Positions 7,163 through 55,002 of a DNA stretch of 64,000 nucleotides are shown here, piece by piece. Below the pieces are notes generated by a model, which worked only from the letters and a program-made list of their open reading frames with translations, had not been told where the DNA came from and did not search any database. This DNA comes from a virus (lineage: Duplodnaviria; Caudoviricetes), in IMG/VR virus record IMGVR_UViG_3300023179_000070, positions 18,053-82,052 of that record. One strand, 5' to 3'. Both the position numbers and the translations under genes were made by a program. Positions within the stretch are counted from its first letter, which is position 1, and every line of letters starts with the position of its first letter.

Positions 7163-7183
7163 TTACACTTAAAAGTAGTGTAA
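7163..7183. promoter_or_regulatory. back-to-back GTGTAA putative phage late promoters
   Basis: TTACAC 7163-7168 (minus) and GTGTAA 7178-7183 (plus) between divergent genes; the motif recurs at 13 or more gene starts. Confidence 0.65.
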
Positions 7184-17483: not shown

Positions 17484-18446
17484 TCAATCTAAAAATTCAT
17501 CTTTTGTTTCATCAAGAAAATCATCTTTTTTGATAGGTGTTTGAAATCTAGGACATCCTTCATATTGTCGAGTTTCTATTTTAAATCCTTTTATATCTTT
17601 AAAATTATCTTCTAAACTAGTTTCTATAATTTCATTTTTATCATTAAGCTTAACGTAATATGTATATGGATCTTTGTATGGACATTTCCATCCTCCGACT
17701 TGACACATCCATTTATTTTTTTGATTATCTATTGCAAAATTAGATCTAGCAGATTCTTCATTAAATTTATTGATATAATCATTAATATGTTCTAAATAAT
17801 GTTCAAATCCTTTAATTTGATTATCATCAAATGATAATTCTTGGATAGGTTGTTTTGGAAATCTAAGAAATAAGAATTTTACTATTGGTTTTAATTTTGG
17901 CCATAATTTTTTGCTAGCAAGACTATACATCATCGCTTGAATATTAGCTTCAAGGTCATCACCCCTAAACTTATATTTGGAGCTTTTGTAGTCAATTATA
18001 TGCATTTCTTTTTTAATTTTAATAGGTTTATCTATAAAACCCTTAATATGATATTTAGGTTCTTCATTTACAATATCAAAAGAATATTCTGGTTTAACTA
18101 TTTCGCCACCTTCACCAAAGAAATCATTTTTAAGCCCAACTAGTATCATATCATTTAATAATTTATAATTACTTTCATCTAATTTGACTTTTGCAGCTAA
18201 TTTTTTGACTAATCTTGAGACTCCTTTATCGCCATCTATAGAATTTTTCTTGATAATTCTTTTATAGTTTTTAAGATGTCTTTTATTTAATAATAATTCA
18301 AAAATAGTATGACAAATCGTACCACGATCACTTCCATCATTAGATCTTTGTGGAATTTTTAAATGATAATTTAACCAATATGTCCATGAACATGTTTCGA
18401 GAGTTTTTATTCTTGAAGCAGATAAAGTTTTATTTTGATGGGTCAT
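17484..18446 (-). CDS. PD-(D/E)XK nuclease (Cas4/RecB-like)
   Basis: LSASRIKTLETC, GTICH, GFIDK, IIDYKSS, QAMMY, C-terminal cysteines. Confidence 0.85.
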   Translation of the reverse strand: MTHQNKTLSASRIKTLETCSWTYWLNYHLKIPQRSNDGSDRGTICHTIFELLLNKRHLKNYKRIIKKNSIDGDKGVSRLVKKLAAKVKLDESNYKLLNDMILVGLKNDFFGEGGEIVKPEYSFDIVNEEPKYHIKGFIDKPIKIKKEMHIIDYKSSKYKFRGDDLEANIQAMMYSLASKKLWPKLKPIVKFLFLRFPKQPIQELSFDDNQIKGFEHYLEHINDYINKFNEESARSNFAIDNQKNKWMCQVGGWKCPYKDPYTYYVKLNDKNEIIETSLEDNFKDIKGFKIETRQYEGCPRFQTPIKKDDFLDETKDEFLD

Positions 18447-34557: not shown

Positions 34558-35109
34558 CTATTTTTTAATTAAATTTATAAAATTAACCATTTGATCTTTT
34601 GTAAAATCATTTTTCATTACATTAATACAATAACATACAAATTCTACATTTCCTTTTATATATCCTATATTCGGATCGATTCTATCTAGGCTTGCTTTTG
34701 TAGGAGTTTTTTTAATATCTTCATCGCCACTTGTTCTACTTAGTTCCATTTGTATTTTTGTATATGGACAAATCCCATTTTGTTTATCCCAAATTTCTTT
34801 TAAATATTCTGTAGTTAAATCTGTTATGTATCCTTTTTGTTTACTTCGTGATCTAGCTTTATTTGCGTGATACTTAAATGGACTATATTGATCTAACCTA
34901 TTAGCTTCGTGTCCTTTTAGTAAAGATATATTACCTTTATTTTTTTCTAGTTTACTTGGATTGTTTTTATAATCTGCTTTTCCAGAGCATTTTAAGCTAC
35001 AATAAAATTTATTTTGACCAGCTTTTGCTTTTCTTTTATAATCGCTCTGTCTTATTTCGTGCTCTTTATTGCATTGAGCACAGATTATTTTTGTCTTTTT
35101 TATGTTCAT
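34558..35109 (-). CDS. HNH-like homing endonuclease
   Basis: CAQC..YCSLKC zinc motif; CPYT..SLDRIDPNIGYIKGNVEFVC..IN. Confidence 0.8.
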   Translation of the reverse strand: MNIKKTKIICAQCNKEHEIRQSDYKRKAKAGQNKFYCSLKCSGKADYKNNPSKLEKNKGNISLLKGHEANRLDQYSPFKYHANKARSRSKQKGYITDLTTEYLKEIWDKQNGICPYTKIQMELSRTSGDEDIKKTPTKASLDRIDPNIGYIKGNVEFVCYCINVMKNDFTKDQMVNFINLIKK

Positions 35110-35174
35110 ATAAAATTATATATAATATAAATATAATTGTCTAATAAAAATGCAGACACAGGGATTCGTTTACT

Positions 35175-35562
35175 TGGACCCGAGAGGAATTGAACCTCTG
35201 TCTTTTAAAAATCTAAATTAAAATACTACAAGTTTAGTTCTTTTTGTTTTTAGCTTTATATAGATAAAGAACAAACATACTTAGCGATTTTATTTTTAAT
35301 ACTTAATATTAATAGAATAAAAAAACTATTAATAATAAGACATCTAATTCCGCAACTATCCAATAGATGTGTCAAGGTAGTCACGCTGTAGAACTTAGGC
35401 TACAGAAGCGGTCATCTCAACAAGAGGAACTCTTGCAGAGATATGACCTTTATATTTTGCTGTTTTGGCAGTTAATATAATTGAAACTTTTTAAGGAGTC
35501 CTCGATTCAACCTCCACTTGCATTTCAATTTATTTTCTTAAAATCGAAACCAGTACGGGCCC
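35175..35562 (-). ncRNA. ssrA: tmRNA
   Basis: 5' GGGCCCGTACTGGTTTCGA pairs with 3' CGGGTCC-A, including the G3:U70 Ala determinant; T arm AGAGG-TTCAATT-CCTCT; pk1 GGAG/CTCC + TTGAA/TTCAA; tag ORF 35469-35395. Confidence 0.93.
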
Positions 35563-35634
35563 AATGTTAAAGAACTAACTAATATTACACATTATAAAGC
35601 TTTTAATAATTTTTGACAATCTTTTTTTAAATTA

Positions 35635-36580: not shown

Positions 36581-38071
36581 TTAGTCCTTTCCTTTATTTA
36601 AAAAGTTTTGTAATTTTCTATATTTTTTATTTTTTATTATAAGTTCTGGTATATTATTTTTAATAATTTGACGAATTTTATTTGAAATAGTATATCTTGC
36701 ATTTTTTTTCGCTGCATCTAGTGATGCATTTATATTATTTCCATATCCTCTACCAATTGCGTTTATATTATAATTAATAATTTCTACATTAGTATTATTA
36801 ACTTTTCCTTGTGAATTAAAAGAAGTTTCATCATAATTTAAAATTAAATTCTCTCTAATATAATAATTTATTTTTTGATCTAAAGCATCATCTGTTCCAA
36901 ATCCAGAGTATACAATATGAAATTGATTGTGTGTTCCAATTTTTTTATTTAATTCTGTTGAAATTAATTCTATTGTAAAATTAGTGTAAGCTGGAATTAT
37001 TCCATTCCAAGTGCCTGTATTAAATGTTTTATTTCCAGTATATAAACCTGTATAAAATTTATAAAATAAAGTATCTTTAATTGGTATATTTTGTGTTAAA
37101 TGTTGATTTTTATCTAATGAAATAAAATTATATATTCCAGTTTTTGGAAAAATATCTCCACTATAATATTCGCTTCCTAAAGTTAATGCTGGAATTTTAA
37201 TTCCTGATGAAATTTTTGTATTTATGGTAGTGGTCTTTTTATTAATTGTATTTATATTGTATACTAATGTATTTTGATATCCAGTATGAATTCCATGGGG
37301 AGAAATATAGCATATATTATATTTTTCTCCATTCCCAGTTGATATTAAAATTATTCCATTCAAATTTTTAGAATTAGTTTGATTTGTATCTAAATAATTA
37401 TATATTGGCGCAATTTTTGTATCACAAATATATGCATTATATTGCCAATTTTGTAAAGAACTTGGATAACTTAAATAAAAACCACTATAACTAGGATTTC
37501 CAGGAATTGCTCCAGAAGTATTGGATTTTGTCCATGCTCTATAAAATGTACTATTTGTAAAATCTAATCCTGTAAAAAATCCTGAAATTAAACTTGGATT
37601 ATATTTTTGATTATATTCACCTGTTAGTATTTTTGAATTTGAAAAATCTTTTGTAAAAGTAGCTCTAATAAATGTTTCATTTTTATTTAAATTAGTTATT
37701 TTTGGTTTTGTTTTATAAAATTGTTGAAAATAATCATAATTATTTGAATAAAAAATATATTCATCTGGAAAAAAATAAGATAATTGTCCAATTAATGGAA
37801 TTTCTAATTTATAATTTGTATAATTTTTTTTAAATTCTATAGGTATATGATAAGTTTGATAACTTTCTGAATTTTTTTTTGATTCAATTTTATTTTTTAA
37901 AATAAGTTCTAATTCTGGATTTTTTAAAGTACCTACATTAATTATATCTAATTTGACATTTTGTAAAGATTTATGTGTTATTTTTTCGTCATCAATAAAT
38001 TGTGATTCAGAATTTACTTTAAAAGTACTCCCAAATCCTAATTTAATTAAATCTTGTTTTGAAATTGACAT
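36581..38071 (-). CDS. hypothetical protein, probably virion-associated (SG/TG-rich)
   Basis: 496 aa, many SG/TG dipeptides as in the tail proteins. Confidence 0.6.
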   Translation of the reverse strand: MSISKQDLIKLGFGSTFKVNSESQFIDDEKITHKSLQNVKLDIINVGTLKNPELELILKNKIESKKNSESYQTYHIPIEFKKNYTNYKLEIPLIGQLSYFFPDEYIFYSNNYDYFQQFYKTKPKITNLNKNETFIRATFTKDFSNSKILTGEYNQKYNPSLISGFFTGLDFTNSTFYRAWTKSNTSGAIPGNPSYSGFYLSYPSSLQNWQYNAYICDTKIAPIYNYLDTNQTNSKNLNGIILISTGNGEKYNICYISPHGIHTGYQNTLVYNINTINKKTTTINTKISSGIKIPALTLGSEYYSGDIFPKTGIYNFISLDKNQHLTQNIPIKDTLFYKFYTGLYTGNKTFNTGTWNGIIPAYTNFTIELISTELNKKIGTHNQFHIVYSGFGTDDALDQKINYYIRENLILNYDETSFNSQGKVNNTNVEIINYNINAIGRGYGNNINASLDAAKKNARYTISNKIRQIIKNNIPELIIKNKKYRKLQNFLNKGKD

Positions 38072-38143
38072 ACATTTATGTTTAACCTTAACCCACCCAC
38101 TTCGCCCGTTTTAACTACTAGCTTTTCTGGGGCAGGTCTAAAT

Positions 38144-38363
38144 CATTTTGTTATCGTTAAATTGTTTATATTTAACATCTTTATATCACTATAAAGTTCA
38201 GACTATATCTTCTTACTTTCGTAAGTTTGGGCGCTCGTGGGCAATGTTATTGTTGGAACTCAATCGCCTAGTCGTTACACCTTACAACCTATCTTTCCCA
38301 GTTGTCTTGGCTCGGTATAATCTATTTTAGATTTCCACCGAATTCACCCAAAATGGTCATTTA
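38144..38363 (-). ncRNA. group I (IA-type) ribozyme core not interrupting any gene
   Basis: P3 TTTGGGTG/CGCCCAAA; P4 TTCGGT/ACCGAG; P5 AATCTA/TAGATT; Q ATACCGAGCCAAG; R GTAACGACTA; P7 GACTA/TAGTC; P8 CTTAC-GAAA-GTAAG; S AAGATATAGTC; P9 CTTTATA-GTGA-TATAAAG; candidate omega-G at 38144. Confidence 0.9.
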
Positions 38364-38419
38364 TTTAATAAAGAACTATTTTTTATTACACTATTTTTTT
38401 ATTTGTGTAATATAAATAT

Positions 38420-38998
38420 ATGCCTAATTTATTACCATATAGAGATTACAATGAGCACGATGTAATTAATTTATATACTTGCGTGACAGTTGCAAATAAA
38501 GGTATATTAGTTAAACCAATAACTTCCCCAAAAGATGATAATGGGACAGATAACTCTAGCGCTGGTCCATTAAAACTAACTTCTGATGGAGTTGGTGAAA
38601 GATTTAAAAATACTATAAGTGATTTATTTGAAATTGTAGGAGAGGTTTCTCCAGTTGTCAATTATAATGACGTTCCAGGACCAATAGGTATTTTATTGTA
38701 TGATGTTAGGGATTTAGATGAAAATGGTGAAAAATTAATATATAATCCACGAAAAATGGCAGAAAAAAATATAGTTCTTCCAAAAGTTCAAGCGGCACCA
38801 ATTTTAACTAAAGGAATTATTTTAATAAATGATATAGATACTTTGAGTAAAACTGGCGGTGGAGGATTACCTTCTATTGGTGCAGCTGCTTATGTTGGTG
38901 ATGATGGTAGGATAGGAACTGATGGAATAATAGTATTAGGAAAATTTTTAAGTAAAATAGATCAAAATGGTTACTGTTTGGTTAAATTAAATATTTAA
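38420..38998 (+). CDS. putative capsid decoration/cement protein
   Basis: LLPYRDYNEHDVINL, GILLYDVRDLDENGEKL, PILTKG, LGKFLS..DQNG pattern; late promoter at 38405. Confidence 0.45.
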   Translation: MPNLLPYRDYNEHDVINLYTCVTVANKGILVKPITSPKDDNGTDNSSAGPLKLTSDGVGERFKNTISDLFEIVGEVSPVVNYNDVPGPIGILLYDVRDLDENGEKLIYNPRKMAEKNIVLPKVQAAPILTKGIILINDIDTLSKTGGGGLPSIGAAAYVGDDGRIGTDGIIVLGKFLSKIDQNGYCLVKLNI

Positions 38999-52269: not shown

Positions 52270-52341
52270 AGCCAGAAATCGGATTCGAACCGATGACCTA
52301 CGGTTTACAAAACCGTTGCACTACCGCTGTGCTATTCTGGC
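52270..52341 (-). tRNA. tRNA-Thr(TGT)
   Basis: GCCAGAA/TTCTGGC acceptor, ACGGT-TTTGTAA-ACCGT anticodon arm, TTCGAAT T loop; no encoded CCA. Confidence 0.95.
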
Positions 52342-54359: not shown

Positions 54360-54431
54360 TGCCTAGTAACTCAATGGTAGAGTGTTTCCCTGTTAAGGAA
54401 GTGGTTCTAGGTTCAAATCCTAGCTAGGCAG
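54360..54431 (+). tRNA. tRNA-Asn(GTT)
   Basis: TGCCTAG/CTAGGCA acceptor, TTTCC-CTGTTAA-GGAAG, TTCAAAT T loop; no encoded CCA. Confidence 0.93.
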
Positions 54432-54437
54432 TATTTT

Positions 54438-54953
54438 ATGAAATATAAAAATAATAATTGTAAATTTTGTAAAAGATTAATTTTAAATAAAGGCTCACTA
54501 GTTTCTCATATGCTATGTTGTATTAAAAATAAAAATAGAGTTAAAAGAATAAGATCCTCAAAAGCTGGTAGAAAGAAAGGGTCAATCGCTTGGAATAAAA
54601 ATAAAAAATTTCCAAATAAAATTTTAAATCGAATACTATTCCAAATAAAATCTGGAGAATATAAACAATTTTGTGAAGCAGTAATAAGAAGAACAGTTAA
54701 ACAATATTTAATATATAAATATGGTAATAAATGCATGATCTGTGGTTTAACAGAATGGCAAAATCAAAAAATACCATTGGTATGTGATCACATTGATGGA
54801 AATCCACAAAATATCAACATAACAAACTTTAGAGTTATTTGTAATAATTGTGATTCATTATTGCCGACATTTAAAGGAAAAAATAAAGGCAAAGGTAGGA
54901 AAGCGAGATATTCTGGAACGATGGCTGAGAGGTCTAAAGCAGAAGCCTACTAA
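54438..54953 (+). CDS. HNH homing endonuclease between two tRNAs
   Basis: CMIC..LVCDHIDGN..N..NFRVICNNC; AWNK motif. Confidence 0.85.
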   Translation: MKYKNNNCKFCKRLILNKGSLVSHMLCCIKNKNRVKRIRSSKAGRKKGSIAWNKNKKFPNKILNRILFQIKSGEYKQFCEAVIRRTVKQYLIYKYGNKCMICGLTEWQNQKIPLVCDHIDGNPQNINITNFRVICNNCDSLLPTFKGKNKGKGRKARYSGTMAERSKAEAY

Positions 54954-55002
54954 GCTTCCGATGGTTTAATATCATCCGTAGGTTCGAATCCTACTCGTTC
55001 CG
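54915..55002 (+). tRNA. tRNA-Ser(ACT)
   Basis: GGAACGA/TCGTTCC-G, GAAGC-CTACTAA-GCTTC, long variable arm GATGG..TCATC, GTAGG-TTCGAAT-CCTAC. Confidence 0.9.

Follow-up and report, generated by a model that had tools for sequence, protein, structure and literature searches.

Permuted intron–exon (PIE) constructs, for which the Anabaena tRNA and T4 td introns have served, carry the 3′ splice site ahead of the 5′ splice site on one transcript, and the exon between the two is circularized by the normal two steps; the intron itself is split in an internal loop into two halves that flank the exon. An element in a 64,000-nucleotide stretch of viral DNA (positions 18,053 to 82,052 of IMG/VR record IMGVR_UViG_3300023179_000070; Caudoviricetes), referred to here as the window, likewise has a 3′ splice site ahead of its 5′ splice site on a single predicted transcript, with an exon that would be circularized. 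Unlike in PIE, its core is undivided, and the sole part to have moved is the 5′ strand of helix P1, which is formed by the guide and the 5′ splice-site strand. The sequences give the layout as leader, guide, core, omega-G (the 3′ splice site), an exon of 60 nucleotides (nt) ending in GGUU, a 12-nt leader and ATG. This element is probably a natural group I intron that is circularly permuted in the P1 loop, trims a message and circularizes a small exon.

The same order of parts is known from engineered constructs. A Tetrahymena ribozyme set upstream of a target reportedly circularizes that target with P1 alone (PMC10457212). Such ribozyme-first circularization is described for the Tetrahymena STS design (PMC10457212), for TRIC (PMC10415121) and for a design with the core at one end (PMC11417360). 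These designs share with the phage element the order guide, core, omega-G, cargo and target site, a P1 made with the far end of the cargo is sufficient, and the cargo becomes a ring without intron scars, as the predicted phage ring would be. The engineered constructs are described as man-made, derived from a eukaryotic ribosomal RNA intron and loaded with kilobase cargos, whereas the phage element is natural, with a smaller core and a rod of 59–143 nt in its family. It also differs in that the RNA past the site is a message continuing into a gene.

Natural counterparts are fewer and differ in other respects. By the account of Chi et al. (2019; PMC6545197), the coral mitochondrial intron ND5-717 is the first group I intron seen in nature to be excised by back-splicing, which corrects the initial annotation of the window, where natural permuted examples were given for group II introns only. 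ND5-717, from mushroom-coral mitochondria, is a eukaryotic organelle intron with nearly the whole mitochondrial genome within P8; its precursor has a permuted intron–exon order and its circular product contains coding exons (PMC6545197). It is described there in two species, as against a phage family with small, non-coding predicted rings (PMC6545197). Bacteria have permuted group II introns that lie outside open reading frames (ORFs), and the small RNA rings that these produce have no known function (Roth et al., 2021; PMC8637638). The phage element resembles them as a natural permuted ribozyme outside ORFs with a small predicted ring, but as described they use branching chemistry and do not abut an ORF, whereas the phage family lies directly before a start codon (PMC8637638).

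A group I ribozyme in a 5′ leader has been described in Clostridioides difficile, where a cyclic di-guanosine monophosphate (c-di-GMP)-II riboswitch is joined to a group I ribozyme whose reaction decides the leader of the message (PMC9481103). The phage element would likewise set the leader of its message from a 5′ leader position. The C. difficile ribozyme has an aptamer and a normal upstream 5′ splice site, whereas the phage element has no upstream exon. The C. difficile riboswitch–ribozyme has an alternative attack site for guanosine triphosphate near the start codon. A scan of 37600–38900 at E up to 10 gave no Rfam family beyond RF00028, the group I intron family, and a chance small nucleolar RNA match. 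An allosteric leader ribozyme of the C. difficile type was rejected, there being no adjacent aptamer match in 37600–38900 and no upstream splice site. A lariat-capping GIR1 ribozyme, for which Rfam has a model, was likewise rejected, with no match at E up to 10 in the same interval and with a covarying P1 present; GIR1 has a double pseudoknot core without P1.

The source of the window is an 82-kilobase (kb) viral contig of 27.5% G+C, with genes for DNA polymerase, helicase, recombinase and tail proteins among its contents; DNA sequencing runs in which the stretch occurs are of lake, pond and other freshwater origin. The Rfam covariance model places a group I ribozyme (RF00028) on the minus strand at 38397..38179, at 58.7 bits (E 5e-14; gathering score 50), and a score above this curated threshold makes it a member of the family; it is absent from the output of the default, filtered scan of the full window at the gathering threshold. 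The ribozyme is intergenic, between two divergent genes, and interrupts no gene. Its parts and neighbours are as follows.

38420..38998, plus strand: divergent gene (ORF) of 192 amino acids (aa), occupying the place needed for an upstream exon
38385..38391, minus strand: promoter-like motif GTGTAAT, directly ahead of the ribozyme; recurs in relatives and in the window, putative promoter
38359..38377, minus strand: short 5′ leader, from AGTTC to the base before the guide; predicted transcript start near 38377; U38359 extends P1
38355..38358, minus strand: internal guide sequence GACC; covaries with the downstream site and has the same position as the guide of phage K1F
38145..38354, minus strand: ribozyme core from P3 to P9.1 with the 3′ tail (RF00028 and RNAalifold)
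38144, minus strand: omega-G, 3′ splice site; ends the conserved tail ...AAC-N-TG
38084..38143, minus strand: exon, predicted circular RNA of 60 nt; a rod with helix arms 38138–38130 and 38098–38090
38084..38087, minus strand: 5′ splice-site strand GGTT; pairs with GACC with U.G at the cut, predicted between 38084 and 38083
38072..38083, minus strand: 12-nt leader predicted to remain on the message after the cut
36581..38071, minus strand: downstream gene (ORF) of 496 aa

The guide at 38358–38355 lies five bases 5′ of P3, and the core spans approximately 215 nt from guide to omega-G, with no P2. GGTT at 38087–38084 lies 60 nt past omega-G and 12 nt ahead of the ATG of the 496-aa gene, from which it is separated by an in-frame stop. 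Both the 60-nt sequence after omega-G and the GGTT that is complementary to the guide with a U.G wobble had been proposed in the initial annotation; minus-strand 38143..38084 reads as quoted there, and the complementarity is present as described.

Relatives were gathered with a 19-base stretch of P3–P4 as query, which gave 16 viral loci, and with a 17-base part of it, which gave at least 119 metagenome stretches. Removal of duplicates and chance matches left at least 68 unique sequences with an intron core. A G..C tetramer at a fixed offset before P3, a recognizable J8/7 and a downstream ORF were required of the 39 that were kept; these, less the degenerate L121 and two duplicates, are the 36 unique sequences, drawn from viral and metagenome contigs, that were counted, all counts here being among the matches listed. 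Group 1 holds 23 of them including the window, and group 2 the other 13, before a different downstream gene of ~126 aa. Nine truncated or J8/7-less intron-bearing sequences stand outside the detailed counts, and L136, which is cut off, was excluded. L011, L027 and L074 resemble cut permuted members, and L137 resembles the canonical form. A homologue of the 192-aa protein with the same layout and the intron occurs in L002 (76% identity), and one without the intron in L003 (50% identity). Two permuted introns lie before two different genes on one viral contig (L004, GACC/GGTT; L007, GTCC/GGAT). A scan of genome contigs gave one permuted member only, L214 (guide GCCT, site GGGT, 4 nt ahead of ATG), on a contig binned as Spirochaetales that is probably a phage contig inside a bin. 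No cultured phage with the permuted form was found in the searches, the matches in Pseudoalteromonas H101 and a Proteus phage being canonical-looking or unclear.

An RNAalifold consensus of 30 permuted members recovers P3, P4, P5, P6, P7.1/7.2, P9 and P9.1, with P7 and P8 visible in the Rfam alignment only. Compensatory changes occur in 22 of the 40 core pairs, and because of these the core is judged to be under selection as a fold. The same changes bear on the suggestion that the locus is an inactive intron remnant stranded between two genes. Its position outside any coding sequence and the degenerate appearance of the relative L121 would suit such a remnant, but the core remains 83–92% identical to that of the window while the first 240 nt of the gene (54–82%) and the exon (46–57%) have diverged much further, over half of the core pairs keep pairing through double changes, and the Rfam score exceeds the curated threshold. 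A remnant is therefore considered very improbable.

The evidence that locates the 5′ splice site downstream is covariation. In the window alone the four-base match between guide and site is not beyond chance, since for arbitrarily chosen GNNC guides 4–78% of group-1 sequences offer a site no more than 25 nt from a gene start; the match is significant because guide and site covary across the 36 relatives. Six guide forms occur in seven guide/site combinations: GACC with GGTT, GATC with GGTT, GGTC with GGCT or GACT, GTCC with GGAT, GGCC with GGCT, and GGGC with GCCT. An eighth, GCCT/GGGT, was seen by eye in L214. All four core P1 positions pair in 36/36, although these positions had served to choose the sites by complementarity. 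Guide base 2 pairs in three Watson–Crick types (G:C 24, A:U 5, U:A 7), guide base 3 pairs as C:G 29, U.G 5, U:A 1 and G:C 1, and the first G of the guide faces U at the cut in every sequence, never forming C:G. The position adjoining the P1 core, made up of the bases immediately 5′ of the guide and 3′ of the site and not used in choosing sites, pairs in 34/36 (U:A 30, A:U 1, C:G 2, U.G 1), and the flanks beyond it in only 11–14/36. A cognate site within 25 nt upstream of an ATG that opens a long frame is present in 23/23 group-1 sequences; with guides shuffled among these the mean was 12.0 (standard deviation 1.9, maximum 19) and 0/10000 shuffles reached 23, figures that are inflated by the relatedness of the sequences and are counts, not probabilities. 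A guide and a 5′ splice-site strand with U.G at the cut are therefore present, though the strand lies downstream of omega-G, 59–143 nt past it as placed by covariation, on a transcript that both would share. The initial annotation had put the 5′ splice site downstream of the 3′ splice site and had named covariation of the guide with this site as a check; seven combinations, an invariant U.G and the shuffling result support it. Among DNA contigs aligned to the window, no change was seen at guide or site.

The invariant U.G also bears on a reading without catalysis, in which the GACC/GGTT pairing merely hides the gene start as a structural or translational switch, or AAGG is a ribosome-binding site. 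The site does read AAGG in the window and in L002, and in group 1 it adjoins the ATG, at a distance of 2–20 nt. A U facing the first G of the guide in all 36 sequences, however, marks out 5′ splice sites of group I introns as opposed to plain helices, and the full catalytic core is kept, with covariation. In addition, a Shine–Dalgarno-like leader precedes only 8 of the 35 long ORFs of the window, and in group 2 the site lies 11–96 nt before the ATG, several members having a separate AGGA-type motif after it. Absence of catalysis is thus highly unlikely, and the suggestion that AAGGT acts simply as the Shine–Dalgarno sequence of the next gene is not upheld.

In an ordinary intron the guide would be expected to pair with an exon upstream, and ligation to restore a reading frame or an RNA gene; neither was found here. 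A cognate 4-mer within 60 nt upstream of the guide occurs in only 3/36 sequences, and in 38/39 permuted members the longest stop-free run leading into the guide does not exceed 26 codons. Such runs of at least 100 codons are found in 12/29 of the other intron-bearing sequences, which resemble ordinary in-gene introns. The initial annotation had offered cis-splicing from ATAGTT (38379–38374) as an alternative, and this, or splicing from a farther exon, would attach a non-coding leader to the 60-nt segment. Pairing of ATAGTT with GACCAT is indeed possible in the window, with one A.C mismatch. Across group 1, however, AGTTC is invariant, 14–22 nt ahead of the guide, while the guide takes six forms in the family, and in L002 the same pairing would need three wobbles and a mismatch. 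A divergent gene begins 42 nt upstream of AGTTC, and a promoter-like motif lies 8 nt before it. Together with the scarcity of upstream cognate sites, these points make cis-splicing barely credible. A pairing of AGTTC with GAACT after P7 was considered as another role for the motif and dropped, as members with GATCT, inspected by eye, retain AGTTC.

Canonical relatives suggest where the permutation lies. In the DNA polymerase gene of phage K1F, in a Proteus phage terminase gene with an HNH gene, and in L137, the same P3–P4 occurs with the guide directly before P3, but the matching splice-site strand is a few bases upstream, giving a local P1 hairpin inside an ORF. The K1F guide has the same position as the window guide and is matched to an exon a few bases upstream. 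In L137 the AAATAAAT stretch recurs ahead of the guide, and the loop of the local P1 hairpin there matches the leader of the window. A break in the P1 loop would fit both observations. Three other sequences with the same P3–P4 stretch (L020, L051 and L096) have another layout, in which the bases before P3 pair far downstream, after a conserved CCCCATC, with compensatory changes and no U.G; L020 and L051 begin with AGTTCTTT. A tRNA-like sequence follows the intron core in L041 and L079, suggesting that some relatives are associated with tRNA genes.

In place of an upstream exon, promoter-like sequences precede permuted members of both groups. The group-1 motif (GTGTAA in 20, TTGTAA in 2 and GTGTAT in 1) lies exactly 8 nt before AGTTC in 21/23, and in group 2 consensus sigma-70 promoters end 18–19 nt before the guide in L087 (12/12 matches) and L013 (11/12). 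Within the window GTGTAAT occurs 8–14 nt ahead of the ATG of five ORFs, on the plus strand at 7178, 21546, 38405, 40115 and 61213, the one at 38405 being that of the divergent 192-aa gene. It also precedes, at 35590 on the minus strand, a transfer-messenger RNA (tmRNA) gene (35174–35562, minus strand; RF00023, 105 bits), where it is followed by a AGTTCTTTAACATT leader and by the same AGTTCTTT start as at the intron. From this recurrence at ORFs, at the tmRNA gene and at AGTTC we infer that GTGTAAT is a phage promoter, that transcription of the ribozyme would start near 38377, ~19 nt before the guide, and that the phage would make messages with almost no leader. A start at that point would leave no room for an upstream exon. 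Separately, the permuted introns of L047 and L132 have, from the leader through the guide to the start of P3, a sequence closely resembled by the AGTTCTTTAACATT leader plus the first tmRNA bases.

The exon is held in shape and length. In the window it has a minimum free energy (MFE) of −16.3 kcal/mol (z −2.0), and the pairing of its two ends that the initial annotation had proposed is the 9-base-pair (bp) outer helix of this MFE fold (38138–38130/38098–38090), with GGTT at 38087–38084 unpaired in the 3′ tail of the rod. Exon lengths are 59–71 nt in the subgroup of the window (1a), 120–143 nt in the second subgroup and 75–77 nt in group 2. The long closing helix of group 2 is compensatory in 15/17 pairs and runs from exon base 1, directly after omega-G, to 4 nt before the cut, and so places both splice sites at one end of the rod. 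No consensus fold was found for 15 group-1a exons with MAFFT and RNAalifold, the sequences being too divergent; nearly all exons nonetheless fold singly, by MFE, as rods with paired ends. Since exon identity to the window (46–57%) is close to that of shuffled exons (47%), the constraint on the exon is taken to concern its shape, its length and the four bases at its 3′ end, and not its sequence otherwise. One of the three circular frames is stop-free in the window, as had been reported, but this is not conserved (3/36 exons), and the check on exon length modulo 3 also speaks against coding, most lengths not being a multiple of 3. A rolling-circle ORF was dropped on both counts.

If standard group I chemistry applies, the rod would bring GGUU back to the guide to form a 5-bp P1 with U.G at the cut. 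A free guanosine nucleotide would attack after U38084, detaching a message with one extra G and the 12-nt leader. The freed 3′ end of U38084 would then attack after omega-G (38144), closing the 60-nt exon into a ring and releasing the ribozyme as a linear RNA. Ring closure would render the cut irreversible. Five ORFs of this phage have the promoter-like motif only 8–14 nt upstream of their ATG; a leader as short as that is probably what the ribozyme restores to its message. The ring itself, the sequence of which is not conserved, may be either a by-product or an RNA with a role that depends on its shape.

The main rival is that only the first step takes place, so that the element is a guanosine-dependent self-cleaving leader, with ring closure absent or minor; the 60-nt piece would then stay on the ribozyme or leave in linear form, and no ring would accumulate. 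Cleavage alone would agree with the weakness of P10, which is mostly of 2 bp and close to what shuffling yields within each group; with the lack of constraint on the exon sequence, so that the ring need not be the selected product; and with the position of the site in group 1, always just before the gene start. A first step alone does not, however, call for the conserved 3′ tail up to omega-G that permuted members retain, for a group-2 helix that puts both splice sites side by side, or for the narrow exon lengths of group 2 and group 1a. Engineered constructs of the same layout reportedly complete both steps without P10 (PMC10457212). Cleavage alone is thus unlikely, though it deserves to be taken seriously.

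Several points nevertheless weigh against the favoured reading of a permuted, ring-forming intron, in addition to the choice of sites by complementarity, the relatedness of the sequences and the weakness of P10. Splicing, the ring and the transcript start are predictions from DNA sequence. P1 has only 4–5 bp, and a second cognate GGTT lies six bases upstream of the site, at 38093–38090, inside the rod helix. The invariance of omega-G follows by construction from the search rule; in group 2 its position is marked by the covarying exon helix that begins at the very next base. A sigma-70 scan gave 0 sites in 37950–38600 of the window and 0 in L005. Among the 68 intron-bearing sequences, 19 show no G..C guide where the fixed offset would place it, and these lie outside the detailed counts. 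Finally, L121 has C in place of U at the expected cut and a promoter-like motif of its own, which indicates that the unit can decay or stand alone. In L121 a hairpin and T run, read by eye as a terminator, are followed by a second GTGTAAT..TAGTT motif and then the ATG of the gene.

The genes around the ribozyme offer few clues to function. The 496-aa downstream product had no Pfam or PHROG match, no tblastn match in phages and nothing usable in the protein atlas, and no related locus was found with it as query. Of 10 homologues or counterparts of the downstream gene searched against PHROG, nine gave no match and one a weak match of unknown function. The 192-aa divergent gene had no Pfam or PHROG match. 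A free-standing HNH endonuclease gene (34558–35109, minus strand; phrog_3322, E 7e-25) lies at a distance of ~3 kb, flanked by the tmRNA gene and by the next gene that looks structural, and three tRNA genes are present in the window, at 52270–52341 (minus strand), 54360–54431 (plus strand) and 54915–55002 (plus strand). In DNA contigs of runs X1 and X6 several co-occurring relatives share the core and diverge from the window at 38144–38148, where the intron ends; variable segments thus meet at a mosaic boundary, which the conserved core forms.

Among the literature matches listed there was no natural permuted group I intron of a phage or bacterium. With this element, permutation in P1 would be seen for the first time in a group I intron and, going by those matches, natural back-splicing by a group I ribozyme for the first time in phages or bacteria; the layout is so far known mainly from laboratory designs. 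Nature would thus have reached the ribozyme-first circularization design that RNA engineers published in 2023–2024. It is also a family and not a single case, with 36 unique sequences in two groups before different downstream genes. A more far-reaching possibility, put forward tentatively and with the odds against it, is that aquatic phages carry a family of dedicated ring-making ribozymes, the permuted core being retained because its product, a small dumbbell-shaped ring proof against exonucleases, acts in infection, perhaps by sequestering a host factor as a decoy or sponge would, while the gene also gains a short leader. If so, these freshwater phages would provide the first natural counterpart of self-targeting circularization, with a P1 of 5 bp. 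Such compact ribozymes could serve in making circular RNA, and small circular RNAs in phage infection would become directly testable. The locus further suggests how a self-splicing intron may persist outside a gene, namely as a self-removing leader before genes that are normally near-leaderless.
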